Positions 6,003 through 38,121 of a stretch of 64,000 nucleotides of DNA are shown in pieces. A model generated the notes under the pieces. The model was not told the origin of the DNA. It saw nothing but the letters and a program-made list of their open reading frames with translations, and searched no databases. Both the position numbers and the translations under genes were made by a program. This DNA comes from a virus (Duplodnaviria; Caudoviricetes), in the IMG/VR virus record IMGVR_UViG_3300043676_000014, positions 30,147 through 94,146 of that record; one strand, given 5' to 3'. How positions within the stretch are numbered: position 1 is the stretch's first letter; each line of letters starts with the position of its first letter.

Positions 6003-6006
6003 TGCG

Positions 6007-6624: not shown

Positions 6625-6650
6625 CTTATTTTTGTGCAGCGCAGACCTTT

Positions 6651-6986: not shown

Positions 6987-7007
6987 GTGATTCTCCTTTG
7001 GTTATAT

Positions 7008-9680: not shown

Positions 9681-9771
9681 CTGCTGAACCTCGCACGTTC
9701 CGCTCTTGGTTAGAGCCGTCAGGGCGTTTCAGCACCTTGGCGGCTCGCTTATTTATGACTGCTTCGGCGAC

Positions 9772-10994: not shown

Positions 10995-11042
10995 ATCGCG
11001 TCGCTAAGGTATCTCATGATTGCCGACCGAAATTCTGCATTC

Positions 11043-12286: not shown

Positions 12287-12297
12287 GAAACCGCTCC

Positions 12298-12564
12298 CTA
12301 GTTTCGTGACCAGCCGCCATGCATACTAGTCCCGAGTTCATCAGCAGGAGGCGGCGGCTCCTTTGGCTTTTTGGGAGTGACGTTCGTCAGTTCTTTTATC
12401 TCAACTTCCCCATCGACCTCTGCCATGATCTTCAGGGTAATTTCGGCGATGCCCGCACCGCCGCCAGCATGATAAATGATCTCGGTAGCGGCAATGTCGC
12501 GCCCGTCCAATTGGACTTTCCCGTGACCAGTCTCGTCAAGAGCAAACGTCAGCTTGTGCGTCAT
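12298..12564 (-). CDS. Hypothetical protein
   Basis: Co-oriented ORF filling the gap. Confidence 0.55.
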   Translation of the reverse strand: MTHKLTFALDETGHGKVQLDGRDIAATEIIYHAGGGAGIAEITLKIMAEVDGEVEIKELTNVTPKKPKEPPPPADELGTSMHGGWSRN

Positions 12565-13336: not shown

Positions 13337-13362
13337 GTTAGCCTCCCACCATCACTAGCGCT

Positions 13363-14775: not shown

Positions 14776-14841
14776 TCACTCGGGCTTGTGGTGGCGGTGG
14801 TGTCTCGGTAGACGTAAGGTTGCACCAGCGAAGGACGCCAC

Positions 14842-25310: not shown

Positions 25311-25681
25311 GCAAACCAGCAGGTGCGGAATTCCCAAGGCTTTGAGGGTTGATAGCTTCTCTAATCGCAACGCTATTCAGCGGGCACGCCAGCCCGATTG
25401 TGCGCTTCTCGCTTTGCAACATCACATTGCGCTGATTTGTTACCCGTTGCTCGAAGCTTGAGCCTGGTAGGCGACCATGTGGCGCAATGCGCCCGATAGG
25501 CGAGTTCCGCCCAATGAAAAGCCCGACTGCAGCATGAGAGGCTGGCCGGGCTTCGGTCGCAATTATGAGGCTGCACTATCCATCGCCTTAACCGTTGGGG
25601 TTAGCAAGAGGCATGGGTACTAGGGCTAGGGGTTATTCACAGGGACGCGCAAACCGGGCGCGCAAACCACAGCCTTGGCGC

Positions 25682-25945
25682 CTAGCCCTTGCGCTGCAGC
25701 TTAGGTGCCAGAACGCCTATGCTCTTACCATCGTCTGTGAAGGCAATGCCACGCTTGCGCAAAGCCTCTTCCACGCCAGCAATGGACGAGCGCCTAGGGT
25801 CTCCCGTGTCATTCTCAAGGTCTATCAGCGTTGCGCGGGATATGCCGGCGAACTCGCATAGCTCTGCCTGGGACAGTCCAAGGATAGCCCTTGCGGCCTT
25901 GATTTGCCTACCTTCCATAAAGAGGCTGTACCCTGTATTAGACAT
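25682..25945 (-). CDS. XRE-family HTH regulator divergent from the small-gene array
   Basis: QIKAARA.LG.SQ.EL...AGIS..TL...E. Confidence 0.9.
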   Translation of the reverse strand: MSNTGYSLFMEGRQIKAARAILGLSQAELCEFAGISRATLIDLENDTGDPRRSSIAGVEEALRKRGIAFTDDGKSIGVLAPKLQRKG

Positions 25946-25968
25946 TATGTAAACTCTTTGTGACTTTA

Positions 25969-26022
25969 TGCATCTTTCTTGTTGACACGCCGTTTATCTC
26001 CTATAAGATGCAAATTGTCAAC
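25969..26022 (+). promoter_or_regulatory. Sigma70-like promoter of the array within inverted elements
   Basis: TTGACA(25982)-16-TAAGAT(26004). Inverted pairs TGCATCTT/AAGATGCA and GTTGACA/TGTCAAC. Confidence 0.65.
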
Positions 26023-26046
26023 TAAGAGATACAAAGGAAAACGACC

Positions 26047-26199
26047 ATGATTGAATTAGCCCTTACCACTGGAATCATCGGAACTGGCATAGGCTTTTGG
26101 ATTGCCGATATGTTGGCGACTCGCAAATGGCGGAATGAGACTATGCTGCGTCGTTGCAACGAAACGGTTTCGCGCCGTTTCAACGCTTCGCGTCATTAA
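26047..26199 (+). CDS. Array ORF, small protein with hydrophobic N-terminus
   Basis: AAGGA RBS, manual translation of 50 aa. Confidence 0.55.
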   Translation: MIELALTTGIIGTGIGFWIADMLATRKWRNETMLRRCNETVSRRFNASRH

Positions 26200-26211
26200 G
26201 GGAATCGAGCA

Positions 26212-26373
26212 ATGGAAAAGAATCCAATCCCTAAAACCGTTGCCGAATTGCGCGCGATACTTGACGCTCGCAAGCCATATACGCAAGCCATATACGACGC
26301 TATTCAGCGCGGTAACATGGATGCATTCGACGCAGCGCAAAAGAGAATGCGCAAAGCTTTCCCTAACGGTTGA
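26212..26373 (+). CDS. Array ORF, hypothetical (53 aa)
   Basis: AAGGGA RBS, manual translation. Confidence 0.55.
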   Translation: MEKNPIPKTVAELRAILDARKPYTQAIYDAIQRGNMDAFDAAQKRMRKAFPNG

Positions 26374-26385
26374 AAGGCGCGGACC

Positions 26386-26607
26386 ATGACACGCAAAGTT
26401 AAAGCATCTGATTACACTCATTCGGTTTGGACTGGCAAAAAGTATAATCGCCAGCAAACGGATTCCGATTTGGCCAACGAAAGCCGAAAGGTTCTTAATA
26501 GACACCCTACAATTGGCCGTTTGTTAGCTCGCCCTAATGACGGCCAACGAATTGCGAGCCATTGTTTTGAACGCTTCACGTTAACCAGCGCGATTGTGCG
26601 CAATTGA
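26386..26607 (+). CDS. Array ORF, hypothetical
   Basis: AAGG RBS, co-oriented. Confidence 0.5.
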   Translation: MTRKVKASDYTHSVWTGKKYNRQQTDSDLANESRKVLNRHPTIGRLLARPNDGQRIASHCFERFTLTSAIVRN

Positions 26608-26624
26608 AAACAGGAATCGCCACT

Positions 26625-27071
26625 ATGGCAAAAAGCTATCCCGAAACTATCCCCTCGCAATTCGCCGCAGAACATTTGACAGACGCTTATAAACGCGGCT
26701 GGAATCAAGGTCACGGCATTGCCTGCCATAACGTGCCGACACTAGGCGAAAAGGTTTGGAGCGATTCGCTTGGCAAGGTCACGATTGACGCTGAAAACAT
26801 CCGCGAGGTTCACGCCGATAACTGCTACCGCGCCGAAGAGAATTCCCGCTCTTATTCGCCTTTCGAGTTTACCGCCAGCGAATTTAACAAGGCCGATACG
26901 ACCGATGGGGAATTCGATCCTGACAAGGAAGGATCGGCCGAAGAGTTATGGGAAGCCTTTGACGCTGGCATTCATGATGCAATCAGCGCCGATTTGTCGG
27001 AATATACCGATGAGGATTATGGGATCGAGGAAGAGGTAGACGAGTCCGATCCAGACGAGTCCACGGTTTAG
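26625..27071 (+). CDS. Array ORF, highly acidic protein
   Basis: AGGA RBS, D/E-rich C-terminal half. Confidence 0.8.
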   Translation: MAKSYPETIPSQFAAEHLTDAYKRGWNQGHGIACHNVPTLGEKVWSDSLGKVTIDAENIREVHADNCYRAEENSRSYSPFEFTASEFNKADTTDGEFDPDKEGSAEELWEAFDAGIHDAISADLSEYTDEDYGIEEEVDESDPDESTV

Positions 27072-27163
27072 ACGTTTCCGCCTTGCGCCGTTCATTCGGC
27101 GCAATGGGAAGCCTCTAGTTTCAATCGGCAATCGTGCCAAACATAACCAAGGGAACTAACGCC

Positions 27164-27256
27164 ATGAAATATCGCAAACATAAATTTGAACGTAAGACCA
27201 TACGTCGCGCGCAATCGCGCTATGGCAAGTATGCTTTCCTGAATTCTGCGCAGTAA
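27164..27256 (+). CDS. Array ORF, basic 30-aa peptide
   Basis: AAGGGA RBS after a hairpin, manual translation. Confidence 0.45.
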   Translation: MKYRKHKFERKTIRRAQSRYGKYAFLNSAQ

Positions 27257-27268
27257 GGAATCGCCACA

Positions 27269-27502
27269 GTGACCGAACGCTGTTTCGCTTGCGACCGAGT
27301 CATTAAGGATACCGGCGATTCCGCGAGGTCGCACCTTGTCGAATGTATCGACGAGCAAACCGCCTTTATCGGTCCCGAATGTTTCCGCAAGGTTAAGCGC
27401 GCGGGAGTCGATGGCTGGCAACCGCCAAAAGGCGGGCCACGTCTTTTCTGCTTAGGTCTTAAACCCGCGCAATTGTGCGCAAATCAGGAGTCAAGGCAAT
27501 GA
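27269..27502 (+). CDS. Array ORF, small Cys-containing protein
   Basis: CxxC...GPEC, AAGGA RBS. Confidence 0.65.
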   Translation: MTERCFACDRVIKDTGDSARSHLVECIDEQTAFIGPECFRKVKRAGVDGWQPPKGGPRLFCLGLKPAQLCANQESRQ

Positions 27503-27597
27503 ACGGTTATTCCGCAAGGCTTAGAGTCTCTCGGATTAAGACGCGCCGCGTTCTGCGAAGATTGAACCGAGTCGCGATTATGGAGTCGCTCCGATGA
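27499..27597 (+). CDS. Array ORF, Arg-rich 32-aa peptide
   Basis: AGGAG RBS, ATGA overlaps on both sides. Confidence 0.45.
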   Translation: MNGYSARLRVSRIKTRRVLRRLNRVAIMESLR

Positions 27598-27818
27598 AAC
27601 GAGTCTGCGATTGCCTGCCAAATGAGGCTTTGCAGGATTGGGATTGTGTAAGATCCTATTGGGAAAACGAGGTTACTGTAGAGCACAAAGACAAATGGCC
27701 GGGACCGCAAAAATACGTTTCATACTGGATTGAGATAGGGAATGGACTCGCTATTGGATGGAATGAGAATCCGTCAAGAGGCTGGTCTTTCCCGGTTATC
27801 AGAATGAAGGCAAGTTAA
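27594..27818 (+). CDS. Array ORF, hypothetical
   Basis: GGAG RBS, GWNENP.RGWSFP motif. Confidence 0.7.
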   Translation: MKRVCDCLPNEALQDWDCVRSYWENEVTVEHKDKWPGPQKYVSYWIEIGNGLAIGWNENPSRGWSFPVIRMKAS

Positions 27819-27855
27819 CCCGCGCCATAGTGCGCAACGCAATGGAGTCGAGACA

Positions 27856-28170
27856 ATGACGATATCCGAATCAACCGAAATGGAGCGCGCGGAATTATTG
27901 CGCGCTGGCGCGGTGGAAATATCCCGCGCCGAATGGCTGGCGCGCGTTGAGTCCTATGGATACCGCGTTAACCAGTCCGATTGCTTTTCCTATCTGAATT
28001 CGCACAACGCGCGGCCATACCATGCCCGCTGCGTCTCGAATTATGAAGATAGGGAAAGCGGACTCTCGTTTGCTCATTACCAGGGACGGCGCGATTCCCG
28101 TTTCAAGGAACTGCAGAAAATGCGTTTTGATTGTTTCGTGTTTTCGCGCGGCCGTATATTTGAGCTCTGA
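27856..28170 (+). CDS. Array ORF, hypothetical
   Basis: GGAG RBS after a hairpin. Confidence 0.7.
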   Translation: MTISESTEMERAELLRAGAVEISRAEWLARVESYGYRVNQSDCFSYLNSHNARPYHARCVSNYEDRESGLSFAHYQGRRDSRFKELQKMRFDCFVFSRGRIFEL

Positions 28171-28183
28171 AAGGGATCAAGCC

Positions 28184-28384
28184 ATGACCACAATAGCCAA
28201 AATAACTAAGGCGTATGTCCGCACCTATTCCGACAATCAAACGACTCGCTCTTATGTCGAATGGATCGATACCAAGGGAGTCGAGGGACGAACGGAAGGC
28301 GCGGTCCCCTTGGGAACGCATATGCTTGCCCTGTTTGAACGGGCAAAGCGTGAAGGCGTCACTCCTATTTATGAACAATGGTAG
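28184..28384 (+). CDS. Array ORF, hypothetical
   Basis: AAGGGA RBS, start trimmed to MTTIAK. Confidence 0.7.
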   Translation: MTTIAKITKAYVRTYSDNQTTRSYVEWIDTKGVEGRTEGAVPLGTHMLALFERAKREGVTPIYEQW

Positions 28385-28395
28385 GAGTCCGCGTC

Positions 28396-28608
28396 ATGAA
28401 AATGCAAGCTGATATCTCAAAGGTGGAACGCGGCGATATCGTCCGGTTCAAATCGTATGCCTTGCGAGTCGAGCAGGAACCAAAACGCGGCAACGGTTCC
28501 ATTACCCTGACCGGGCGAATCAGCGTCGACGGTTCCCCGATTGTCACGAAGCATTTTATGAATGGTCGCATGGTCCTAATCGAGAGGGAATCCGCGCCAA
28601 AAGCCTAA
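28396..28608 (+). CDS. Array ORF, hypothetical
   Basis: AGGAG RBS. Confidence 0.65.
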   Translation: MKMQADISKVERGDIVRFKSYALRVEQEPKRGNGSITLTGRISVDGSPIVTKHFMNGRMVLIERESAPKA

Positions 28609-28710
28609 CCCCTGGGATACGGCTGATTCCAAGAGTCCCCGATACGGCTGATTCCAAAATGCTAAACCCTATTCCGCGCCATTGTGCGCAATTGAGAAGG
28701 AGTCGAAACG

Positions 28711-29163
28711 ATGCCTGAATTCATTCTTGACCACGGAACGGTCGAAACCGCGAAACAATTCCGCGCCTTGGATTCCTTTACGCAAGGTTACATTGAGGCG
28801 ATGTTTTTCACGTCTGAGGGCGTCGACAATGATTACGAACCTGGCCACGAAAACGACCTAGCTAATATCAGCGTTGCGGACCTTGCGCCTAGCGCGCTGC
28901 AGATCATCATTGAAAACTGCGAAGCATTCCAGCGCGACAATGCGGCATTGCTAGAGCAAGCCTACGGCGTGACCGGGAAATATGAAAAGTTCCCCTATGA
29001 CGAGTCGCGCGCTGGCAATGACTACTGGTACACGCGAAACGGGCATGGGACGGGCTTTTGGGATCGTGGCTTAGGCGATATCGGAGAAGCCTTGGCAAAG
29101 GCCGCGCGCTATTCGGAGCGTTCCCTATACCGCGGCGATGATGGAAAGCTGTACCTAGCTTAA
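28711..29163 (+). CDS. Array ORF, phage hypothetical with G.D.W.TRNGHG.GFWD motif
   Basis: AAGGAG RBS, distinctive motif. Confidence 0.85.
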   Translation: MPEFILDHGTVETAKQFRALDSFTQGYIEAMFFTSEGVDNDYEPGHENDLANISVADLAPSALQIIIENCEAFQRDNAALLEQAYGVTGKYEKFPYDESRAGNDYWYTRNGHGTGFWDRGLGDIGEALAKAARYSERSLYRGDDGKLYLA

Positions 29164-29204
29164 CCCCTTCCCTACGGCTGATTCCAGAATGAAAGGAAAA
29201 CAAA

Positions 29205-29360
29205 ATGCAAACGCAAGACCTAGTGAATCTTTTGAACAGCGCGGCCGCCGTCTTGGAATGCGGCAACGGAACCGTTAGCGCGGACGAATTGAGCCAACTT
29301 ATCGAAGATCTGCTAATGGCGGCCGTCGAACTAGAGGGACCGCCGCCGAAAATGAACTAA
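29205..29360 (+). CDS. Array ORF, small acidic helical protein
   Basis: AAGGA RBS, bounded by repeats, manual translation. Confidence 0.6.
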   Translation: MQTQDLVNLLNSAAAVLECGNGTVSADELSQLIEDLLMAAVELEGPPPKMN

Positions 29361-29451
29361 CCCCTAGTCCCGGCTGATTCCAAAGGGAGTCCCGGTTACG
29401 GCTGATTTTGAGTTAGTGGCAATTGTGCCGAACAAGTTGAAAGGAATGAAC

Positions 29452-29889
29452 ATGCTGAAGAAACACGATTCAATCGAGACGCTGCAGCAAATTGGAATCT
29501 CTTACGCCGACGCGACCGAGTTGCGGCGCATATCAATGACCTTGCATCGCTGGCATGAGCTCGAATGCGGCGGTGGGAACGACCACGCCTCTTGGACCAT
29601 TGCGCGCGGTCGCAAGGTGAACGGCGTTTTTGAGTACGACGATAACGGAACGCCTTTCGAAGAACGCCACGTTCACTCCGAAAACAAGGCGCGCTATACC
29701 GCTATTCCCGATCGGGAGCGCGGCGCGTTGAAACGCCTTGCGGATATCATGGTGCGGTATCCGACTCTCTCTTCCTATGTTCAAGGAGATCCGCGCGGCG
29801 CGTCCCTGTATATCTTGCGACCTGGGGACGTGCCGGAAGGTTCAAGCGTCGACTCCTGCTATTCGCGCGGGATTGCCGTTTATAAGTAA
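29452..29889 (+). CDS. Array ORF, hypothetical with QGDPRG motif
   Basis: AAGGA RBS, bounded by repeats. Confidence 0.8.
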   Translation: MLKKHDSIETLQQIGISYADATELRRISMTLHRWHELECGGGNDHASWTIARGRKVNGVFEYDDNGTPFEERHVHSENKARYTAIPDRERGALKRLADIMVRYPTLSSYVQGDPRGASLYILRPGDVPEGSSVDSCYSRGIAVYK

Positions 29890-29961
29890 CCCCTCTTTAC
29901 GGCTGATTTTGCTACCCCTGATTACGGCTGATTTTGGCCAAACGAAAAAGGAGTCTAGACC

Positions 29962-30183
29962 ATGAAAACAGCGCGCGAAATTCAAATGAAATTTGGCGAA
30001 GGCCGCCCGGCAATGGGCGGTTCAGTTCATGACATTACTATCCCAGCCGGAACGCGAGTCGTTCCTACCGACGACGCGCAATTCTTTGTTGATGATCTGA
30101 GATTTTTGGATCGGAACAGCATGGCTTACCATGACGCCTATCATTACGGCATTCGCCTGAATTGGGAGGACGTAACCGACTAA
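29962..30183 (+). CDS. Array ORF, hypothetical
   Basis: AAGGAG RBS, bounded by repeats. Confidence 0.75.
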   Translation: MKTAREIQMKFGEGRPAMGGSVHDITIPAGTRVVPTDDAQFFVDDLRFLDRNSMAYHDAYHYGIRLNWEDVTD

Positions 30184-30243
30184 CCCCTGGTTACGCCTTA
30201 CCCTGACTTACGGCTGATTTTGAAATACGAAAGGAGTCGCAAA

Positions 30244-30573
30244 ATGATAAGTGATAAATCAATGCGCAATGTGCTTCACGCCGCTGGTGTGGTGCGTACC
30301 GCCAAGGCGCGCGGGAAGAAGCCGAAGAACGCCGACCGCAGATTGCCGCCCGATCCCGAGGAAATGAACGACGACCGCGCGGCATGGGCGGGCGAGTGCA
30401 TCAGCCTCATGTCAGAGATTACCGGCTGTGAAGATGGGCAAGAGGCGGCGGGCGATTTGCTGGCAAACTATTTCCATTGGTGCGACCGCAACGGCTTGGA
30501 CATGGAAATGATGATAGAGCGCGCCCGCGCGTGTTACCGCGACGAAACTATGGCGTTTCCAGACGCGGGCTAA
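30244..30573 (+). CDS. Array ORF, hypothetical (DLL...HWCD motif)
   Basis: AAGGAG RBS, bounded by repeats. Confidence 0.75.
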   Translation: MISDKSMRNVLHAAGVVRTAKARGKKPKNADRRLPPDPEEMNDDRAAWAGECISLMSEITGCEDGQEAAGDLLANYFHWCDRNGLDMEMMIERARACYRDETMAFPDAG

Positions 30574-30616
30574 CCCCAGGATACGACTGATTCTAAAACA
30601 ACGAAAGGAGTCTGAA

Positions 30617-30901
30617 ATGTCGAATAAATACTATTACTTTCAACTCTGCACAAACGATATAGCGGCAATTGAAGCCGCAGGCTTGGGTGAGCTCGCCGCG
30701 AAGATGCGCGCCGACGCCGCCGAAATTGATAGCGAGGAAGCGAGCGACTGCCGCGAGAACGCGAGCGACAATGAGGGATTCACGCCGGAATGGTCCGGCC
30801 CGGTCGCGTTCTGCGATGACGGCAAAGCCTGGGTTATGACTTGGGAATTAGTCGATGATCCAAATGCGGAAGTCGAGGAAGAGGAGGAGGCTACAGCCTA
30901 A
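30617..30901 (+). CDS. Array ORF, very acidic protein
   Basis: About 24 D/E vs 5 K/R in 94 aa, AAGGAG RBS. Confidence 0.8.
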   Translation: MSNKYYYFQLCTNDIAAIEAAGLGELAAKMRADAAEIDSEEASDCRENASDNEGFTPEWSGPVAFCDDGKAWVMTWELVDDPNAEVEEEEEATA

Positions 30902-30945
30902 CCCCTGCTTACGTCTGATTTGAAACAAGGAAAGGAGTCGAGATC

Positions 30946-31158
30946 ATGGAAACGATCTTTAAGTATTGGGGAATGTGCGAGTCGCGCGGCGAAAAGCCTA
31001 AGCCGGTTTTTGCCGTCATTGAACGCTGGTTTGATACGGCCAACACAAAGGACAAGATTAAGCATTGGTCCCTTTCGCGGCGTGAGATGGCGAAGTGGGT
31101 TGGCTCGCTTGTCTCTCCGAATCTGTACGTCATCGTTAAAATCGAGCGCGTTACCTAA
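30946..31158 (+). CDS. Array ORF, hypothetical
   Basis: AAGGAG RBS, bounded by repeats. Confidence 0.7.
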   Translation: METIFKYWGMCESRGEKPKPVFAVIERWFDTANTKDKIKHWSLSRREMAKWVGSLVSPNLYVIVKIERVT

Positions 31159-31218
31159 CCCCTGCCACCGTCTAATTTTCATCCCTCGCAATTGTGCGGA
31201 AATAGAAGGAGTCCGAAT

Positions 31219-31497
31219 ATGGCTAAGTTGATTTTGACGGCATACCCTGCCCAGGTTTCCGAAAACGGAGGCTTTGGAGTCGTGTTCGATCTAACCGGAG
31301 CTCCGCCGCCGCTTCCGGCTAAGGTTGTCGAAATCAAGCGCGCGGCCGAGGCTACCGTGGCGCTTGAAGCCTACAAGGCGGAGGCCGCGCAAACCGGCAA
31401 GCCTATCGCTATTTCAATGCGGATTGCCGATGGCGACCGTTCGCCAAATGGCTTCAAGGCGCTGCAACGTCCCTATTATCATAAGGTGAACGCCTAG
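31219..31497 (+). CDS. Array ORF, hypothetical
   Basis: AAGGAG RBS, start trimmed to MAKLIL. Confidence 0.75.
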   Translation: MAKLILTAYPAQVSENGGFGVVFDLTGAPPPLPAKVVEIKRAAEATVALEAYKAEAAQTGKPIAISMRIADGDRSPNGFKALQRPYYHKVNA

Positions 31498-31592
31498 CAC
31501 CTACTCCCCGGTTGCGCCTTCATGTGCGCTACCCTGACCTACGACTGATTCCAAAAGGCGCAATGGTGCGCAAACTATAGAGGAGTCCAATT

Positions 31593-31925
31593 ATGACCTT
31601 TACACCTGATACCGAAGAAACGCCGGTTGTGTTTCGCGCCGAACGCTCTGGCAAGTTCAAGGGCGATGTTACCGCCGTGTTTCCCTGCGATCCTGCAGAC
31701 AGCAACGGCTATGAAATGACTTGTTACGCGCATATAGGCCAGCATTCCGGCTGCAGCCTAGGCTGGTATCACACCACGCGCGCCGCCAAGCCGGAAGAGT
31801 ATGCGGACCTGAAAAAGGAACTGGAATCCGCGCCTTACGGCTACCGGCTCAAAGTCTATTCGCGGATCCAACCCTGGATGCGAGAGGCGCGGAGCAAGAC
31901 CGCGAGGAAACTGGAAAAGGCTTAA
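31593..31925 (+). CDS. Array ORF, phage hypothetical (CY.H.GQH motif)
   Basis: GAGGAG RBS, bounded by repeats. Confidence 0.8.
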   Translation: MTFTPDTEETPVVFRAERSGKFKGDVTAVFPCDPADSNGYEMTCYAHIGQHSGCSLGWYHTTRAAKPEEYADLKKELESAPYGYRLKVYSRIQPWMREARSKTARKLEKA

Positions 31926-32032
31926 TCCCCCGGTTGCGCCTTCACGCCTAATTCTGGCGATGGCGTTACCCCTGGGTTACGACTGATTTTGTTTTAACGG
32001 CGCAATGGTGCGCAAACACAAGGAGTCTGAAC

Positions 32033-32203
32033 ATGAAAACATCAAAGGAACGGTGGCCGGAACTGTACGATGTCGCACTTCGTATTGCCAACGAGACCTG
32101 TTATCAAATTAACATGCAGGGCGCACAAGTCAAAAGCGAGATGCCGTACAAATCTCAATGCATCTTGGAGAGTGTCATAAAGATTCTGGAGCAGCGCGTT
32201 TAA
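32033..32203 (+). CDS. Array ORF, hypothetical (56 aa)
   Basis: AAGGAG RBS, manual translation. Confidence 0.65.
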   Translation: MKTSKERWPELYDVALRIANETCYQINMQGAQVKSEMPYKSQCILESVIKILEQRV

Positions 32204-32252
32204 CATTCAACTGGCGCAATGGTGCGCAACTTAACTAGAGGAGATTCAACTT

Positions 32253-32669
32253 ATGGGCTGTGACATTCACATGGTTTTGGAAAAGCGCATCAACGGGAAA
32301 TGGGTAACGACTCAGACCTTTGACGCAATCGAAAGCTGGAACGGATTTGCCTCGCCTATCGCGCGCAACCGTAACTATGAGCGCTTCGCTAGGCTCGCTG
32401 GCGTTCGAGGTGACGGCCCCGAGCCGCGCGGCATACCGGATGATCTTAGCGAAACCGGACGCTATCATGTGGACGTATGGAGCGGTGACGGCCATAGCCA
32501 CTCATGGTTGCCGCTAAAGGATGCCGTCAAGGTCTTTGCCGAAACCGAGCATAAGAAGCATGAGCCGAACAGCACGGCCACAGAGTATCCGACAGACTAC
32601 TATTTTGGCGTTTCTGACGACGACTCGGAAATGGACGATTATCGAGTCGTCTTTTGGTTCGATAACTGA
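32253..32669 (+). CDS. Array ORF, MGCDIH-family phage protein
   Basis: MGCDIH...RNY..FA.LAGVR...PRG.P.D...HSHSW...R.VFWFDN. Confidence 0.85.
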   Translation: MGCDIHMVLEKRINGKWVTTQTFDAIESWNGFASPIARNRNYERFARLAGVRGDGPEPRGIPDDLSETGRYHVDVWSGDGHSHSWLPLKDAVKVFAETEHKKHEPNSTATEYPTDYYFGVSDDDSEMDDYRVVFWFDN

Positions 32670-32739
32670 TCCTCACCCGAGGGGCGGCGCGTTGTCGCCC
32701 CTCTCTTACGGCTGATTTTAAATTAGAAGGAGTCCGGCA

Positions 32740-32937
32740 ATGTCATATGAAAGCACTTTGACGCGAGACGCTAACGGCTACTGCAAGCTATTCGGCCTTG
32801 AGTATCGGATATGGCCCGGCCGCAAATGGCGGCGCTGTTCCCTTACCATGCACGATCGATACGCGATCGAACAGCAAGCGGAGCTTCTAGCCGCACAGGA
32901 CAAGTGGAGCGGTTGGCGCGTTATCGAAGTAGCCTAA
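32740..32937 (+). CDS. Array ORF, hypothetical
   Basis: AAGGAG RBS, bounded by repeats. Confidence 0.7.
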   Translation: MSYESTLTRDANGYCKLFGLEYRIWPGRKWRRCSLTMHDRYAIEQQAELLAAQDKWSGWRVIEVA

Positions 32938-32987
32938 CCCTCACCTACGGCTGATTCCAAATTCACACGAACATAGGAGATTCACAA

Positions 32988-33278
32988 ATGGCTAACTACA
33001 AAACAGGCGCGGAACGGCGCAACGATAGAATGCACAAAATCTTCGAGACGGCATACGAGCTCGCCGCGCACAACGCGGGATGGTCGCCAACCGGAACGCA
33101 CGGGAAGTGGGTTTGCGCTGGCGATAAGCATTTCGCCAAAGGCAGCTACATGCCTACGGATCGCGCCTGCCGGTACATCTGCGAAGATCACAATTTGCTC
33201 GGTTTGCGTTCGCATGACAGTTCCGATGCCGCTCCAAGCGACCCGGCCCCTCATATGCCGATTGGATTGATCGACTAA
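32988..33278 (+). CDS. Array ORF, hypothetical
   Basis: AGGAG RBS, bounded by repeats. Confidence 0.7.
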   Translation: MANYKTGAERRNDRMHKIFETAYELAAHNAGWSPTGTHGKWVCAGDKHFAKGSYMPTDRACRYICEDHNLLGLRSHDSSDAAPSDPAPHMPIGLID

Positions 33279-33324
33279 CCCTCACTCCCGGCTGATTTCA
33301 AACACTCATAGAGGAGATAGAAAA

Positions 33325-33666
33325 ATGACGAATCTACTTGCGACGGCGCGGATGATCTTCAACACGAAAGCAACGGAATGGGCTCACGGTTGGGAAACAG
33401 CCCGCGTGCGGGCTACCCGATACCAAAATCCACATCTAGGATTTAACGTCGGATTCTCCTTTCCGAAGAATCCGCATGATTGCGACCGGGCCGACATGAT
33501 GGACTGGCTCCGGGAGAATGGCGTTCACGTCTATAGTTGCGGTGGCTACCCTGGTGCGGAAGTTATGGCTTTGGTTGACGGCGTTAAAAGCAAAGAAGCC
33601 GCGAACGAGTGGTTGCCAACCTTCCTCCCAAGGCTCGATGCTTGGGTAAAGGATAATTTGCACTGA
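33325..33666 (+). CDS. Array ORF, hypothetical
   Basis: GAGGAG RBS, bounded by repeats. Confidence 0.75.
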   Translation: MTNLLATARMIFNTKATEWAHGWETARVRATRYQNPHLGFNVGFSFPKNPHDCDRADMMDWLRENGVHVYSCGGYPGAEVMALVDGVKSKEAANEWLPTFLPRLDAWVKDNLH

Positions 33667-33734
33667 GGCAAACCCCCGCTTACGACTGATTTCAACCGCG
33701 CCAATGTGCGCAACGAAACAAAGGAGATAGAATT

Positions 33735-34025
33735 ATGATCGCATGGACAAATGAACAGCAGAATCTCGCCTTGGCCGATGGCTGGGGAGTTTTCGACAAC
33801 TCGGACCACGGCTTGCGCATCGAACGCCACGACGCGGCGCAACGCTTTGACTGCGATGCGGCGGCGCAAGCCTATGTTTCAGTCCGAGCCATGAACGGCG
33901 ACCGCCTAGCTAAATCAGCATGGCGGGAGATCGCATGGCATCATGCCGTGCTCGATGCGGCCGACGACGAGGACGCATCTGGAATGCGCGAGGAAATGGC
34001 CGACAAGATCCAGCGGCGATCCTGA
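33735..34025 (+). CDS. Array ORF, hypothetical
   Basis: AAGGAG RBS, bounded by repeats. Confidence 0.75.
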   Translation: MIAWTNEQQNLALADGWGVFDNSDHGLRIERHDAAQRFDCDAAAQAYVSVRAMNGDRLAKSAWREIAWHHAVLDAADDEDASGMREEMADKIQRRS

Positions 34026-34064
34026 CCCTACGCTACGGCTGATTCCAATTGAGAGGAGGAACCA

Positions 34065-34295
34065 TTGGCGCGCAAGCATCCATTTCACTATGACACTTAC
34101 CATAAACTGCACGATCAATTTGACCCAATCGTGAAGTCAAATGACGCGCGGCTTTTTCCAGAGGTCCGAAAGAAACTCGAAGAGGCGCAACACGCAGTTT
34201 GGTCCGGCGTGGAATACTCAAATGGATATGGAGCGCGCGTTCGGGCTGCGCGACGACTAGCCCCAGCTACGGCTGATTCCAACGAAAGGAGCTAA
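34065..34295 (+). CDS. Array ORF, hypothetical; reads through a repeat copy
   Basis: GAGGAGG RBS, TTG start. Confidence 0.6.
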   Translation: MARKHPFHYDTYHKLHDQFDPIVKSNDARLFPEVRKKLEEAQHAVWSGVEYSNGYGARVRAARRLAPATADSNERS

Positions 34296-34305
34296 TGAAA
34301 ACACG

Positions 34306-34548
34306 ATGCCCAAACAAAATATGTCAGAGCCGATCCAGTTTCGATCCAAGGCGAATGGCGATCTCATGAGCGGCCAAGCCGTTTGGGACCGTAGGATGGA
34401 TACGTTAATAACCGGAGAGGATACCAAGCTATCGGATGGCGACATGGTTACACTCAGAGACGGGTTTAGCCTTATCGTCCACCATCCCGAACAGCGGGTT
34501 GGCGGCGTTACGGTATGGCAGGCGCGTATGCTGCCGATGAAGCTGTGA
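34306..34548 (+). CDS. Array ORF, hypothetical
   Basis: Co-oriented, between repeats. Start uncertain. Confidence 0.55.
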   Translation: MPKQNMSEPIQFRSKANGDLMSGQAVWDRRMDTLITGEDTKLSDGDMVTLRDGFSLIVHHPEQRVGGVTVWQARMLPMKL

Positions 34549-34644
34549 TCATATCCACCCCCCAACTACGGCTGATTCCAACACCCCTACTTGCGGCTGA
34601 TTCCGTGAGCGTAGAGAGAGATAAACACTTGAGGAGGGAAGAAT

Positions 34645-34830
34645 ATGAAATGGATATTGAAGGGTTACATGGCCTTTGTGGCTGCAACCTTATGCTTCAT
34701 GGCCTACGCCTTCACTGGACGCGAAATCACATTGGGGAAGATAAAAGAGACGTGCCACATCGCACTCGCTTTCAAAGACCCCACGCCCACGGCGCAAGCT
34801 ATCTGTTTTAGAAACGGGTTTTATAAATAG
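34645..34830 (+). CDS. Array ORF, small membrane/secreted protein
   Basis: GAGGAGG RBS, hydrophobic N-terminus. Confidence 0.65.
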   Translation: MKWILKGYMAFVAATLCFMAYAFTGREITLGKIKETCHIALAFKDPTPTAQAICFRNGFYK

Positions 34831-34857
34831 CCCTTTAGCAGAGAGGAGATTCGTTCA

Positions 34858-35132
34858 ATGACAGATCGGGAAAGGGCGGCGGCTATCCGCGCGCATGGTG
34901 CTGCGCATGAGGCAAAGATTGTCAAACGGCGCAAGGCCAGGACGGCGGCCGATGAGCGTAAAAAGAAACGCGGCCTGGCTGCAGCGGTCGCGCGACTCAA
35001 ATAGGAGGACTGACAATGTTTGTGCTTGGCTTCGCTTGCGGTTTGGTTTTTGCCCTGTCCTCGCTGTTCGGGATATGGGTCTACGCCACTAGGCCCGATC
35101 CTGGCGGCCCCTTCAATTGGCCGCTGGATTGA
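34858..35132 (+). CDS. Two tiny array ORFs (34858-35004 basic 48 aa; 35016-35132 hydrophobic 38 aa)
   Basis: GAGGAG and AGGAGG RBSs, manual translation. Confidence 0.5.
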
Positions 35133-35195
35133 CCCTCACCTACGACTGATTTTTCCTTACCCCTGGTTGCGGCTGATTTGGAGGAGGACTTTGAA

Positions 35196-35450
35196 ATGGC
35201 GAATTGGATACTCGATTCTGTGGTTGAGGTTGACGAAACTGGAAAGGAAACTGAATACCCGATCCATGTCGACTCCAAACCAAACCCCTGCCACATCTTC
35301 GTTGAAAACGTAATAACTGACATTTCACGCCTGCCAGAACGAGACAACGATTCCAAATATGTCATGCAGGTTTCTATAGACGAATTACGGGCTATTTTGG
35401 CTAGACGTCTTTGGGATCTGATACACCCGGCTACGACGGATTCCGTTTGA
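35196..35450 (+). CDS. Array ORF, acidic hypothetical
   Basis: GGAGG RBS, ends through a degenerate repeat. Confidence 0.7.
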   Translation: MANWILDSVVEVDETGKETEYPIHVDSKPNPCHIFVENVITDISRLPERDNDSKYVMQVSIDELRAILARRLWDLIHPATTDSV

Positions 35451-35489
35451 CCCCTAGTTGCGCCTTAATAATTGAGAGGAGGATTGACG

Positions 35490-35708
35490 ATGAATAGCGA
35501 ACCGAAAACAGCGGCGGAGTTCGACGCCTTGCCGATTGGCGGAGAGTTCGGCAGTCGAACCGAAAACGGAATTACGATTCCGGTCGCGCCGGACGTTGTG
35601 GCGTATCACGCAAGCGATGACACAATCGTATCGCGCATAGACGAGTTCGGCGGCAGATGGATACTTGGCCGCTACGCCTCCGGGCACTGGTTCAAACGGA
35701 GAATGTAG
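35490..35708 (+). CDS. Array ORF, hypothetical
   Basis: GGAGG RBS. Confidence 0.65.
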   Translation: MNSEPKTAAEFDALPIGGEFGSRTENGITIPVAPDVVAYHASDDTIVSRIDEFGGRWILGRYASGHWFKRRM

Positions 35709-35711
35709 CCC

Positions 35712-35995
35712 ATGATCGGAAACATAATATGGGCCATAGCCTTCATCCTGGTTCTGGCTGCGCTTTCGCAAATGGGAAAGGAAAAGGAATGACGAAACCT
35801 GCAACCGATGCATTTGCCTTAGACGCCTTACTTTCCGGACAGCAGCCTGAACCGGTCGCCTCGACCATCGAAGATGACGAACTAAGGGCGGAGATTCGGC
35901 GCATCGGAAACGCCGTTAAGCGGATTTATGAAGAGGAGTCCGCCGCTGCATACCAACGCTATCTGGATACGAGGACCACCCCCACTGACGGCTAA
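35712..35995 (+). CDS. Two small array ORFs (35712-35792 hydrophobic; 35789-35995)
   Basis: ATGA coupling, manual translation. Confidence 0.5.
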
Positions 35996-36047
35996 TTCCA
36001 GTTCCACGCTACCCGTGGCTACGGCTGATTTTGAGAGGAGATGAAGT

Positions 36048-36314
36048 ATGAATTCTACGATTTGGAAATCCGTCTTGAAACTAGAGGACGTGCAGAAGAT
36101 CATGGTGCCGGATGGATCGGAGTTGCTATGCGCCCGCGAGCAATTCGAGCAGATATGCGTGTGGTATCGCTGCGATCCGAAGGCCGAGAAGTCGCCGCGC
36201 TCCATTGCCATTGTCGGCACTGGCAATCCTGCACCTGGCGCTGATGGTCGCTATCTTGGAACGGCCTCGCTTAGTGGTGGATCGCTCATGTTTCATGTAT
36301 TCGAGCGACAGTAA
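36048..36314 (+). CDS. Array ORF, conserved phage hypothetical
   Basis: IWK..L...Q.+..P.G...L......+W...P...GTG...YLGT....+.HVFE. Confidence 0.8.
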   Translation: MNSTIWKSVLKLEDVQKIMVPDGSELLCAREQFEQICVWYRCDPKAEKSPRSIAIVGTGNPAPGADGRYLGTASLSGGSLMFHVFERQ

Positions 36315-36315
36315 G

Positions 36316-36852
36316 ATGACCAATAAGCCTTGGGAAACCGAACCTGACAATCTCGACTTCGAGGCCGATGGCTTGCGCTGCGTCATGCGCCGAAATTCGT
36401 TTGGCATATGGTGTGGGTACGTCGGCGTCGGCGAGGATCACCCTTGGTTTGGCTTGCCGAGCAATACATTGATCAAGCCGACGCCGGACATGCTTGAAAA
36501 CCGCAGCCTCGACGATATGGGCGTATTCAACTTGTTCATAGCGTCGTTTTCCAACAAAGACCCTAGCGATGAGTTAGAGATTGCGTCGGCGCTGCGTGTT
36601 CACGGCGGCATCAGCTTTAGCGACTTCATGGATGATGGATTATTCTATTACGGCTTTGATTGCGGCCATGCTGGCGACTTCGCGCCAGAGATGCAGAAGC
36701 ATTACGAAACCCTGCCGGAGCATCTTCGCCGCTCCATGCCGCGCGGCGTCTATCGAGATCAGCAATTTGTCGTCAGCGAGTGTCAGCAATTGGCCGCGCA
36801 ATTAGTAAGAATAGCGCAGGCGTTCAAGGCTACCGCAGAAGCATCGAAATAA
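36316..36852 (+). CDS. Array ORF, conserved phage hypothetical
   Basis: W.GYV...HP...VHGG+.F...GFDC.H.GD, start trimmed to MTNKPW. Confidence 0.8.
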   Translation: MTNKPWETEPDNLDFEADGLRCVMRRNSFGIWCGYVGVGEDHPWFGLPSNTLIKPTPDMLENRSLDDMGVFNLFIASFSNKDPSDELEIASALRVHGGISFSDFMDDGLFYYGFDCGHAGDFAPEMQKHYETLPEHLRRSMPRGVYRDQQFVVSECQQLAAQLVRIAQAFKATAEASK

Positions 36853-36885
36853 CCGGCAATCGTGCCCAACAGAAAGGACACCCCC

Positions 36886-37047
36886 ATGTCACCCCCACGC
36901 TTCACCCACAAGCGCATCACTTCATCCGACTTCAAGGCCGAGCTCGACCGTCAGAATCTCAGCCTGCCGGCGTTCACCCGGATCTGGTGCCAGAATCTAT
37001 CCAAGACTAAACGCTGGGCCAACGGCCAGGAGGACATCCCTACATGA
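36886..37047 (+). CDS. Small HTH-like protein, possibly truncated
   Basis: F...L...L....F..+....... RW..G...IP pattern. Confidence 0.55.
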   Translation: MSPPRFTHKRITSSDFKAELDRQNLSLPAFTRIWCQNLSKTKRWANGQEDIPT

Positions 37048-37259
37048 GCGCCGAATCGCAAATGCGCGATGAGATGCTTGTCTTGGCCCAGTTTTTGATG
37101 CGCGGGTCCACGTATACGTGCCGCAACGGCATCGAATATGTCTCTGATATTTACCTGAGCGTACACGACCGAGACTTGATCGTTGAGGCCCTGAAGGAAT
37201 GCGCGAGAAACGCATTTGAGTTACCAAACGGCCCTAGTGCCAAACCGAAAGGAACATAA
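37044..37259 (+). CDS. Array ORF, hypothetical
   Basis: ATGA overlap, GGAGG RBS. Confidence 0.6.
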   Translation: MSAESQMRDEMLVLAQFLMRGSTYTCRNGIEYVSDIYLSVHDRDLIVEALKECARNAFELPNGPSAKPKGT

Positions 37260-37262
37260 ACC

Positions 37263-37889
37263 ATGGAACAACAGAGACGCAGAGGCGCCCCAGGCATTGC
37301 ATTTCAGGTAACATCATATGCGAACGAGCATGGGTCTGGATTTGTAGCTGCATTCAGGGTGCCTGGGCTACCGAAGCGGTACGTGCAGGCAAATCAAGGC
37401 GAGCGGGCTATTTTCAACACTAAGACAGAGGCTCTTGCCGCAGCAGGCATGGCCCTTGCCCAACGATTGAACGAACGCGTCATGAGTAAGACAATCAAAA
37501 ATGACTATGAGCGTCTTAGCCCCGCAGTCTTTGCGAGGATACTTGGAGAGATCAACATCAATCCAACGGACTTTTGCTGGATGCATGGAATGCGCTATGA
37601 TCGCTTGATGAGGTGGATTGAAGGTATGGAGGATATTCCGGCTTGGCTTCGGCCCGTGATGGCCGCCTATCTTGTTCCGGAAGCGCTAGACCGAGCATGG
37701 GAAGAAGCAGAATTGGCGACAACGCCGCGGCCTCGCAAGCCACGGCCCGTTGAAGAAAAGCGAGAACATACGCCGCCGCTAGATGAGGTTGAAATTGACG
37801 CAGACAATCCGAATGGAGACGGGGAAAATATCGAATGGCTCACGCCAGAGCAGCATCGCGCGAAACACGACAGGGGCGGCTACGGCTGA
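37263..37889 (+). CDS. Two-domain protein with C-terminal HTH-like segment; last array gene
   Basis: RW..G.EDIP segment similar to 36886-37047. Stop codon lies inside a repeat. Confidence 0.7.
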   Translation: MEQQRRRGAPGIAFQVTSYANEHGSGFVAAFRVPGLPKRYVQANQGERAIFNTKTEALAAAGMALAQRLNERVMSKTIKNDYERLSPAVFARILGEININPTDFCWMHGMRYDRLMRWIEGMEDIPAWLRPVMAAYLVPEALDRAWEEAELATTPRPRKPRPVEEKREHTPPLDEVEIDADNPNGDGENIEWLTPEQHRAKHDRGGYG

Positions 37890-37923
37890 TTCCAATAGCC
37901 CTGGCTACGACTGATTTTTCCAA

Positions 37924-38115
37924 CTAAGGATTATATTTTCGAGGCCACTCCGGATCAAAGCCTCGAGCACAAACCCAGAGCGTATTTGTATTATAGAAAG
38001 CAAATGCGGCAACGTGATCCGGGCCGCAAATTGGATATCTAATCCAAGCCATCCAAGCCGTTCCGATCCAGAATACAAATGAAAGGGCGCCTAAAAACGC
38101 AAGGAACTTCATCAC
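37924..38115 (-). CDS. Small membrane protein between two repeat doublets
   Basis: Hydrophobic N-terminus, GGAGAGGG RBS. Confidence 0.6.
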   Translation of the reverse strand: MMKFLAFLGALSFVFWIGTAWMAWIRYPICGPDHVAAFAFYNTNTLWVCARGFDPEWPRKYNP

Positions 38116-38121
38116 CCTCTC

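Follow-up and report, generated by a model that had tools for sequence, protein, structure and literature searches.

What is the small hairpin that recurs along the early accessory-gene array of a temperate phage of ~94 kb from an alphaproteobacterium, and does it act as RNA or as DNA? We analysed a stretch of 64,000 nucleotides of this genome (the window) and found 12 copies of the consensus ccGCGC-R-ANNG-T-GCGC-AA, all on the + strand between positions 26588 and 36869 and each at the head of one of 12 gene units (Table 1). A sequence-only reading of the same DNA had listed 12 hairpins, and all were recovered exactly as listed. In 12/12 copies, the stem ended 17–25 nt before the start codon. 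The A-rich run and SD that the earlier reading had placed behind each hairpin were likewise present throughout, with AA directly after the stem and the SD 3–9 nt further on.

Table 1. Positions of the array promoter, the 12 hairpins and the two candidate reader genes in the window.
Feature	Sequence or product	Position	Strand	Remarks
Promoter	sigma70-type, TTGACA-16-TAAGAT	25982..26009	+	Only strong one on + strand
Hairpin 1	GCGCG-ATTG-TGCGC+AA	26588..26603	+	Heads gene 26625-27071; overlaps last codons of gene 26386-26607
Hairpin 2	(C)GGCA-ATCG-TGCC(A)+AA	27126..27141	+	Stem variant; heads Arg-rich microprotein gene
Microprotein gene	30 aa, arginine/lysine-rich, MKYRK...	27164..27256	+	
Hairpin 3	GCGCA-ATTG-TGCGC+AA	27467..27482	+	Heads gene 27499-27597; within 3' end of gene 27269-27502
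Hairpin 4	GCGCC-ATAG-TGCGC+AA	27822..27837	+	C.T closing position
Hairpin 5	GCGCC-ATTG-TGCGC+AA	28676..28691	+	Two cores upstream
Hairpin 6	TGGCA-ATTG-TGCCG+AA	29417..29432	+	U.G outer pair, G:C pair 2
Hairpin 7	TCGCA-ATTG-TGCGG+AA	31186..31201	+	U.G outer pair
Hairpin 8	GCGCA-ATGG-TGCGC+AA	31558..31573	+	
Hairpin 9	GCGCA-ATGG-TGCGC+AA	32000..32015	+	
Hairpin 10	GCGCA-ATGG-TGCGC+AA	32214..32229	+	Without upstream core
Hairpin 11	GCGCC-AATG-TGCGC+AA	33698..33713	+	
Hairpin 12	(C)GGCA-ATCG-TGCC(C)+AA	36854..36869	+	Heads Cro-like HTH gene
gp36886	XRE/Cro-type HTH gene, 53 aa, MSPPRF...	36886..37047	+	

The loose pattern GCNANNGTGCNNAA matched the window 13 times, compared with 0.87 ± 1.08 matches expected from 100 shuffles, and none of the shuffles (0/100) reached 13. 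Twelve of these matches lay inside the array; the thirteenth, at 9728 on the minus strand, was a chance match. We detected no further in-context hairpin copies elsewhere in the whole 94,146-bp phage genome. No match to the element was found in the literature, and Rfam (cmscan, E<=1, positions 25600-40500) returned no family matching the hairpin, which appears to be an undescribed shared control element. The sole cmscan match in this interval was a YrlA-like RNA at 40157-40227.

At least 11 related proviruses or phages carried the same element at the head of 7–12 gene units; for one of them, a prophage, the host is named, Bradyrhizobium sp. C9. Ten genomes together held 99 in-context copies (7–12 each), on one strand only and preceding about 38 gene families, whereas a reversed-pattern control gave 0–1 in those genomes. 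The strict motif was kept at 111 of 131 orthologous gene starts. Positions flanking the hairpin were polymorphic in 12–14 of 17 families, compared with 0–3 of 17 for the free stem positions. Within the Bradyrhizobium sp. C9 chromosome, the prophage alone showed in-context copies, and five of the best matches outside it lacked an SD or start.

The compensatory changes claimed in the sequence-only reading were correct, but thin as seen in this genome alone (three copies with a GGCA/TGCC stem and two with a U.G outer pair); they became solid only with the related genomes. Across the collected copies, pair 2 was CG in 81 rows and GC in nine and was never unpaired, and pair 1 included GU and UG. 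The covariation score and the count of double-change cells were reached by 0 of 500 shuffles, a test that overstates significance because the genomes are related, and one in which the independent events were few and the search pattern left stem positions 3-4 and their partners no freedom to vary. The stem had switched at orthologous sites. Ahead of the microprotein gene it was GGCA/TGCC in this phage and the related genome G008 versus GCGCA/TGCGC in the soil contig L278 and the Bradyrhizobium clade; ahead of the HTH gene it had switched to GGGC/GCCC, and ahead of the MAKLIL gene to UCGCA/UGCGG. Orthologues of hairpin 7 in relatives had GCGCA/TGCGC, those of hairpin 12 read GGGCG-ANNG-TGCCC, and the hairpin 4 site in L278, a close relative, was GCGCA. 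Judged by sequence comparison, the switches are independent compensatory changes. Position 5 flipped between A and G in 8 of 17 gene families opposite an invariant T10, and the single copy with C10 had G5, a pattern that we read as a wobble signature.

At orthologous sites the loop measured 3, 4, 5 or 7 nt while stem and AA were kept; in G008, the hairpin 5 orthologue was GCGC-ATACG-GCGC and that of hairpin 12 was GGGC-GCTTAAT-GCCC. The pairing-preserving stem changes indicate that the hairpin forms, most likely in mRNA, and the variation in loop length argues against a fixed-spacing dimer operator or a compact promoter, neither of which should tolerate it. A hairpin thus appears to fit the data better than a duplex operator or promoter. 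The earlier view that covariation favours an RNA or single-stranded DNA hairpin over a plain operator therefore held, on the orthologous compensatory changes, the loop-length variants and the R5/T10 asymmetry. The stem variants ruled out a direct-repeat reading of the motif.

The fold itself is weak (-4 to -6 kcal/mol), and the antisense strand is equally stable. Mean in-context pairing probability was 0.56, the copy at 31558 was predicted to be unfolded, and three copies in this genome, those with GCGCC, have an unpaired C.T closing position. The AA, A6 and G9 were required by the search pattern, and one variant from a relaxed search (G008, ATCA) deviated at G9. The stem sequence was conserved far beyond the needs of pairing, which fits a sequence-specific reader, of RNA or DNA alike.

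A second motif, the TACGRCTGATT core, lay upstream of 6 of the 12 hairpins and was lacking at the other six. In the six units with a core, the hairpin began 17–33 nt after it, start to start, as previously noted. The cores behaved as 3' or end-of-unit elements, and four orphan cores followed the last gene. Some cores in relatives had a 5-bp stem, a UACG loop and a T run and could be weak terminators. Inside the array we found no excess of promoters, a single sigma70-like promoter being scored, at its head, and no excess of intrinsic terminators; no promoter-like sequence was present at the hairpins. The promoter at the array head is presumed to start a long early transcript bearing all the hairpins. 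The promoter region beside the XRE gene carries a different inverted repeat. In relatives, including G008, the first copy lay at about +10 past a sigma70-like promoter and hence within the 5' UTR, and the hairpin was often preceded by G+C hairpins.

Our preferred explanation, proposed tentatively and at somewhat less than an even chance, is that the element is a hairpin of the mRNA leader which a phage factor reads and which would thereby co-regulate the translation or stability of early anti-defence-type cassettes, along the lines of Aca1/Aca2 and ESAS. The single promoter would most likely drive a long transcript of about 40 small + strand genes, made up of independently translated units of 1–3 tightly packed genes with an RNA hairpin at the head of each. 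This hairpin would consist of a 4-5-bp G+C stem and a loop, in most cases ANNG (4 nt), with an unpaired AA behind the stem, and its distance from the SD would place it at the 5' boundary of the region bound by the 30S subunit. We infer that RNA is the active form and that a phage-encoded protein, conserved with the hairpin, reads the stem and AA, in the direction of tuning or shutting off translation of all units jointly, possibly with an effect on mRNA stability too. As for the cargo, genes for an ArdC-N-like protein and a DUF3560-methyltransferase protein are found in the relatives' arrays and represent early anti-restriction-type cargo.

Two genes, both behind variant-stem copies, are candidates for such a reader. 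The gene for the Arg-rich microprotein (27164) and that for the Cro-like HTH protein (gp36886) were each present in 10 of 10 hairpin-bearing genomes compared, the latter always behind a variant-stem hairpin, although this co-occurrence may be mere shared ancestry. The HTH product is 53 aa here and 107-116 aa in relatives. Its orthologues were modelled as XRE-type HTH proteins (pLDDT 74-87 over the HTH), and their fold matches were weak, including Aca2 at rank 14 (E about 0.9); the predicted similarity is to the generic XRE fold only, not a specific kinship with Aca1/Aca2. The XRE protein at 25682, put forward earlier as a possible binder, is a poor candidate: it is not conserved with the motif, having no clear orthologue in the ~18-kb array loci of nine hairpin-bearing relatives and, as its best counterpart in G008, a 36%-identical match.

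Rather unlikely, in our judgement, is a passive 5' stabiliser or processing boundary without a dedicated phage reader. Host RNases of the RNase E or RNase J type would cut the A/U-rich spacer or the cores, and a G+C hairpin at or near the new 5' end would protect the unit and insulate its SD from upstream sequence. The hairpin is indeed always the 5' element of a unit and never without a downstream gene, it travels with its gene in mosaic comparisons, and its loop is free in sequence and length in the clade closest to this phage; the end-of-unit cores and the single promoter without terminator excess agree as well. However, thermodynamics alone leaves the near-constant GCGC/GCGC stem unexplained, as it does the AA in every collected copy (AA being part of the search pattern) and the contrast between saturated flanks and barely changing free stem positions. 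The stem is also short and only marginally stable, and 5' stabilisers described so far need to sit no more than a few nt from the 5' end. We regard as improbable a duplex DNA operator, in which a dimeric HTH protein (gp36886 or the XRE protein at 25682) would bind a 14-bp dyad, GCGCR-N4-YGCGC, as a roadblock or repressor, comparable to the phiC31 CIRs or, loosely, to mycobacteriophage stoperators. In size and geometry the 5-4-5 dyad is like a 434-type operator, there are two XRE-type HTH genes flanking or ending the array, conservation of the stem sequence is strong, and the first copy in relatives lies just past the early promoter. Against this stand symmetric double changes at pair 2, never single-side ones, half-site spacing that varies over 3-7 nt at orthologous sites, the consistent asymmetry between variable position 5 and fixed T10, and the restriction of all copies to SD-linked sites on one strand, absent from the other ~80 kb. 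The operator reading also sits poorly with the XRE gene at 25682 not being conserved alongside the motif.

Homology blocks between this phage and L278 start 5 nt upstream of hairpin 3 and at a core, and they finish at gene stops; the genes behind the same hairpin module differ between genomes. Hairpin and gene likely move together as a cassette between related phages, as a secondary effect. It is very unlikely that this is nearly all there is to the element, that is, that a 16-27-nt module (hairpin, AA and SD) with little regulatory role persists as a recombination linker or selfish mini-repeat, mainly because it offers microhomology for the exchange of cassettes, as PeSLs do in T4-type phages. 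The element is kept at orthologous genes despite substitution-saturated flanks, and the changes that preserve pairing point to the fold itself as the target of selection. Nut-like antitermination, with the core as boxA, the hairpin as boxB and an N-like arginine-rich reader that would let RNA polymerase pass weak terminators between units, strikes us as highly improbable. The stem-loop equals boxB in size, its conservation is shared by an Arg-rich microprotein and the relatives' stem-forming cores could supply the terminators, but half of the hairpins have no core, the core is no match to boxA, and words resembling boxA were not enriched (58 versus 53 expected), with none adjoining a hairpin. 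Intrinsic terminators were not in excess, and a 30-aa peptide is too small for the NusA and RNAP contacts of lambda N. We give the slimmest chance to a compact phage-specific promoter before each unit, whether an N4-like DNA hairpin, T7-like or dependent on an alternative sigma. The conserved word of ~16-20 nt at a short, near-constant distance from SD and start would suit it, as would the G+C hairpins that often precede the relatives' copies. However, loop-length variants would alter its geometry, the relatives' first copy lies past an ordinary sigma70 promoter, and no RNA polymerase gene was found among the large ORFs (the two longest being outside the scan and sigma factors outside its scope). 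The longest ORF (1232 aa) is taken to be the tail tape measure and a G+C-rich 691-aa ORF the fibre.

The lambda and P22 nut sites share with the array hairpin a 14-15-nt G+C stem-loop in early transcripts and an Arg-rich small protein encoded nearby, and the sequence-only reading had likened the core-then-hairpin order to boxA-boxB. The likeness did not hold up: boxB has a GNRA-like loop of fixed length (GAAAA or GACAA), whereas the ANNG loop varies from 3 to 7 nt and is unrelated at orthologues, and boxA (YGCTCTTYA-like) lies a few nt upstream of its stem-loop, with none at the hairpins here. Lambda also has one or two sites per early operon that are not start-linked, in contrast to 12 copies tied to SDs and starts. 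There were no N-like matches among the proteins scanned, the 30-aa peptide being too short for profile search and much shorter than N.

In Cluster A mycobacteriophages, stoperators are asymmetric duplex sites of 13-14 bp to which a monomeric repressor binds across the whole genome (PMC9283540); like the hairpins, they are numerous, oriented and located in the short intergenic spaces of temperate phages. The present element differs from them, and from dimeric HTH operators, in being a dyad with compensatory changes and variable spacing that is confined to one array. PeSLs of T4-type phages join a sigma70 early promoter to a terminator stem-loop (PMC2839356, PMC4122927). They resemble the element in being regulatory cassettes that recur around small, variable early ORFs of a plastic region, at the points where relatives have swapped genes; here, in contrast, the single sigma70-like promoter is at the array head, none is at the hairpins, and the stem-loop is a 5' leader element. 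The SAS/ESAS repeats of Cluster K mycobacteriophages are start-associated and had no tested function as of 2025 (PMC3203893; PMC12699233). They are short repeats of 11-19 copies in one orientation, directly upstream of the start codons of a subset of non-structural genes and conserved with the gene family, with ESAS forming an inverted repeat immediately 5' of the RBS-linked element. The hairpin is also multi-copy, in one orientation, limited to non-structural genes, start-linked and conserved with the gene family. It differs in its 4-5-bp stem, compared with 17-bp ESAS arms and a 4-13-bp spacer, and in lying upstream of an ordinary SD rather than overlapping the RBS as SAS does; the hosts are Alphaproteobacteria instead of Actinobacteria, and the available text on ESAS gives no pairing-preserving evolution. 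In sequence the two are unrelated: the 13-bp SAS consensus GGGATAGGAGCCC, which lies at the RBS, had no match with up to two mismatches.

In anti-CRISPR operons, the HTH proteins Aca2 and Aca1 bind hairpins of the 5' UTR whose ends lie about 20 nt ahead of the start codon (PMC13551039). There as in this phage, small 5'-UTR hairpins with stem covariation stand about 20 nt before phage anti-defence gene starts, the operon also codes for an XRE-type HTH regulator (here gp36886 and nine orthologues), and, in relatives of this phage, the hairpin directly follows a promoter. Aca motifs number one or two and stand at the head of a single operon, compared with 7–12 copies along the array, and are accompanied by a related promoter DNA repeat, whereas this phage has no hairpin-like promoter repeat. 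By analogy, gp36886 may bind the RNA hairpins and repress translation in an Aca-like manner, and the control logic of the array would then match that of Aca1 and Aca2 at anti-defence operons.

All 12 hairpins of the sequence-only reading are present as described, with the consensus cc-GCGC-R-ANNG-T-GCGC-AA. A loose pattern that placed no constraint on the two outermost pairs or on the closing base produced 13 matches in the window, against 0.87 ± 1.08 expected, and 12 of these lay on the + strand of an array of small genes. We detected no further in-context copies outside the array in the whole phage genome. The proposed A-rich run and Shine-Dalgarno (SD) sequence also followed every hairpin, with AA in each copy, the SD 3-9 nt on and the start codon 17-25 nt past the stem. 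The hairpins at 26588 and 27467 fall within the 3' end of the preceding gene; what is kept is thus position relative to the downstream start. Promoter-proximal hairpins head units of one to three genes, genes being otherwise 11-13 nt apart, and each of the 12 has a gene behind it.

Pattern scans showed that the element is shared by IMG/VR proviruses (80-132 kb; one resides in Bradyrhizobium sp. C9), by a 104.6-kb metagenomic phage (G008) and by three short soil contigs. Each record carried 7-12 copies on a single strand, clustered in 7-10 kb, while a reversed-pattern control gave 0-1. We gathered 99 in-context copies from 10 genomes, ahead of about 38 gene families. The strict motif was kept at 111 of 131 orthologous gene starts, several of the remainder being variant hairpins. 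A 16-mer scan of genome contigs returned nearly all single chance matches, with multiple copies only in Bradyrhizobium sp. C9 (seven) and B. embrapense (two). A metagenome scan with a tandem-core pattern found mainly unrelated tandem repeats, the only true relatives being soil contigs L278, L288 and L346. Use of the module by the host was rejected, as five of the best-matching sites in the rest of the Bradyrhizobium sp. C9 chromosome had no SD or start context.

Covariation favoured a folded hairpin over a plain operator, as had been suggested, on the strength of switches at pair 2, switches between orthologues and loop variants. At pair 2, where both sides were free, C:G occurred in 81 distinct rows, G:C in nine and mismatches in none. 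Pair 1 was mainly G:C (two G.U, two U.G and four mismatches), and the closing pair was G.U in 54, A-U in 31, G-C in one and unpaired in four. None of 500 shuffles attained the double-change count or the covariation score of the real sequences, a result that is supportive rather than a probability, given that the sequences are related and the search pattern fixed pairs 3-4. Among orthologues, the stem before an Arg/Lys-rich microprotein gene is GGCA/TGCC here and in G008 versus GCGCA/TGCGC in L278 and the Bradyrhizobium clade; that before a Cro-like helix-turn-helix (HTH) gene is GGGCG/TGCCC in nine relatives versus GGCA/TGCC here; and that before the MAKLIL gene is UCGCA/UGCGG here versus GCGCA/UGCGC in relatives. 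At orthologous sites in the clade nearest this phage, the G+C stem and trailing AA are kept, and the loops are 3, 5 or 7 nt long and unrelated in sequence. Flank positions were polymorphic in 12-14 of 17 families and free stem positions in 0-3 of 17, indicating selection on the element itself, on sequence as well as pairing. Taking these results together, the element is a real, conserved leader hairpin associated with gene starts that most likely acts in mRNA, and we consider a functional RNA hairpin probable.

The 94,146-bp contig has overlapping ends and is a circularly assembled phage genome, of which the window comprises bases 30147-94146. The phage encodes an integrase and is therefore temperate; its genes also specify a portal, a protease-capsid fusion, a DNA methylase, a beta-clamp and a DnaA-C-like protein. 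Its nearest TerL proteins (54-59% identity) belong to Labrenzia and Agrobacterium phages. Most proteins of the array had no assigned function when scanned, and promoter-like and terminator-like sites within it were no commoner than in shuffles. In public phage records the array had no DNA relative, the sole matches being 93-117 bp at 74-77% identity to Caulobacter phage genes. Most array genes (26047-37889, +) end in TAA followed directly by CCC(C), and many of their SDs are GGAGTC or GGAGATTC, thus containing GANTC, the CcrM-type methylation word. Beyond the array, the Ro60/TROVE gene, YrlA-like RNA and RlaP-type gene (38344-41847) look, from sequence, like a module for RNA quality control or repair carried by a temperate phage.

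Features of the phage genome and of relative L241 (window positions unless marked L241)
Feature	Position	Strand	Remarks
Run of ORFs	5228-15612	minus	between head and tail genes
TerL	22920-24596	minus	
Sigma70-type promoter	25982-26009		sole good one facing into the array
Array of ~40 small genes	26047-37889	+	12 kb, between packaging genes and Ro60
Arg/Lys-rich microprotein	27164-27256		30-34 aa across genomes
Cro-like HTH	36886-37047		53 aa here vs 107-116 aa elsewhere
Ro60/TROVE gene	38344-39996	minus	
YrlA-like Y RNA match	40157-40227		35 bits, under gathering score
RlaP-type nucleotidyltransferase gene	40861-41847	minus	
N6/N4 DNA methylase gene	53903-55174		
ArdC-N-like protein	L241:8874-9287		behind hairpin
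DUF3560 + SAM-methyltransferase protein	L241:11954-14317		787 aa, behind hairpin

A second repeat, the TACGRCTGATT core, is present within 28618-38160 in about 27 copies, all of them on the + strand. Unlike the hairpin, it follows stop codons, usually with a run of C between, and four orphan copies (37881, 37906, 38123 and 38150) lie past the last + gene, facing the end of Ro60. A subset in Bradyrhizobium-type relatives reads TCGGC-TACG-GCCGA-TTTT, with a 5-bp stem, UACG loop and T run; a conserved core hairpin was rejected, being true only for that subset and not for this phage. The core behaves as an end-of-unit (3') element and is perhaps a weak terminator or a 3' stabiliser.

The XRE protein encoded at 25682, previously suggested as the hairpin's reader, is a poor candidate: it had no clear orthologue in nine Bradyrhizobium-type loci, and its G008 match is 36% identical and 9 kb away. 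It is a typical C-protein/434-like HTH, and the relatives have a different, co-oriented HTH gene ahead of the promoter. In the interval that separates the XRE gene from the array's first gene (25945-26047), a 7-bp inverted repeat (GTTGACA ... TGTCAAC, 28 bp apart) flanks the sigma70-type promoter and is more likely the XRE operator than the hairpin motif is. Two array genes, those for the Arg/Lys-rich microprotein and the Cro-like HTH, were found in 10 out of 10 genomes, and the hairpins they stand behind are the variant-stem copies. The HTH orthologues are predicted to adopt an XRE-type fold; a fold search returned generic XRE-family matches only (C proteins, HigA2, MqsA and Aca2; E 0.3-2), too unspecific to support a particular relationship to Aca. 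Because all the genomes are related, co-occurrence of the candidate readers with the hairpin is a lead, not evidence.

Within the HTH gene region (36886-37259, +), the C-terminal half conserved in nine relatives (WVPIALT...FPYQKLRQMP) is replaced here by an unrelated 71-aa ORF, and L288, 98% identical, lacks the approximately 0.7 kb that follows the HTH gene here (37053-37774). Hairpin 3 heads the gene for a second very basic microprotein (27499-27597, +; 32 aa, MNGYSARLRVSRIKTRR...), which is 84% identical in G008 and was not found in Bradyrhizobium-type relatives. The relatives' arrays include genes for an ArdC-N-like protein and a 787-aa DUF3560-methyltransferase protein, by their sequences putative early anti-restriction-type cargo. 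This set of genes, sited in a tailed prophage, recalls the anti-restriction genes of plasmid leading regions.

That a phage factor reads the hairpin, and in this way jointly controls the units' translation or stability, is a tentative but serious possibility. We hold rather unlikely a phage "translational regulon" in which the hairpin serves as RNA operator and is read by one small phage protein. In such a regulon, one polycistronic early transcript would offer as many as twelve identical leader hairpins as binding sites for either the 30-34-aa Arg-rich microprotein or the Cro-like HTH, the latter then working on RNA; swappable anti-defence cassettes would be switched on or off together, and a new gene recombining in behind a hairpin would be enrolled automatically.

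The leading rival is a passive stabiliser or insulator, which would suit a hairpin at the head of each unit. The low stability of the fold (-4 to -6 kcal/mol, equal on the antisense strand; mean in-context pairing probability 0.56) counts against an RNA hairpin; acting as RNA, the hairpin would probably need a partner. Folding energies this small settle nothing, and we dropped thermodynamics as an arbiter. A duplex operator ranks next and would share the inverted symmetry. Of 17 gene families, 8 have position 5 alternating between A and G while its partner T10 is invariant (the sole C10 copy has G5), which fits A-U/G.U drift in RNA, not two equivalent half-sites. Neither a dimer operator of fixed geometry nor a compact promoter should tolerate the loop variation.

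A recombination linker comes third: the homology blocks shared with L278 have hairpin 3 or a core at their start and gene stops at their end. A proposed breakpoint directly after hairpin 6 was rejected, as blastn homology runs on through. The likeness to lambda nut boxA-boxB drawn from the box-then-hairpin order does not hold up, as boxA, loop type, copy number and SD linkage all disagree, and a nut-like site ranks fourth. A promoter ranks last. A sigma54 promoter (consensus GG-N10-GC) was rejected, the spacing being 3 nt off and GG being absent from most copies. Other candidates were discarded. The variants GGCA...TGCC and GGGC...GCCC obey an inverted rule, not that of a direct repeat (GCGCRA, 10-bp spacing); a DnaA-box-like reading of TGTGCGCAA would leave the conserved 5' arm unexplained; and minus-strand matches to the hairpin complement (genome 4517 and 4740), considered as a possible antisense RNA, lie within coding sequence and are due to chance.

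The family is compact and tractable: its hairpin is 14 nt long and comes in natural variants, both compensatory and of loop length; each genome has 7-12 copies; the candidate readers are two tiny conserved proteins; and the hosts are related to Bradyrhizobium strains that can be cultured and whose prophages include relatives. Should a protein read the hairpins, they would show post-transcriptional co-regulation of a whole plug-in early/anti-defence array by a temperate phage and offer a portable multi-gene translational switch; if none does, they would still illustrate cleanly a 5' insulator or stabiliser linked to gene cassettes.

The hairpin had no match in Rfam, nor the motif in the literature searched. 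Repeated start-associated motifs (SAS/ESAS) have been catalogued in phages since 2011 (PMC3203893, PMC12699233); their positional logic is the same as here, the SAS consensus is absent, and SAS/ESAS function is untested to date. The hairpins resemble PeSLs in marking swap points, since hairpin 3 or a core starts the L278 homology blocks, but differ in having no accompanying promoter. As a precedent for mechanism, Aca2 and Aca1 come closest: these HTH proteins regulate anti-defence operons and bind hairpins in the 5' UTR whose end lies about 20 nt ahead of the start codon; their RNA binding was shown recently, for single operon leaders only (PMC13551039). In the relatives and G008, the first hairpin lies at about +10 from a sigma70-like promoter, the same geometry as in Aca2/Aca1.
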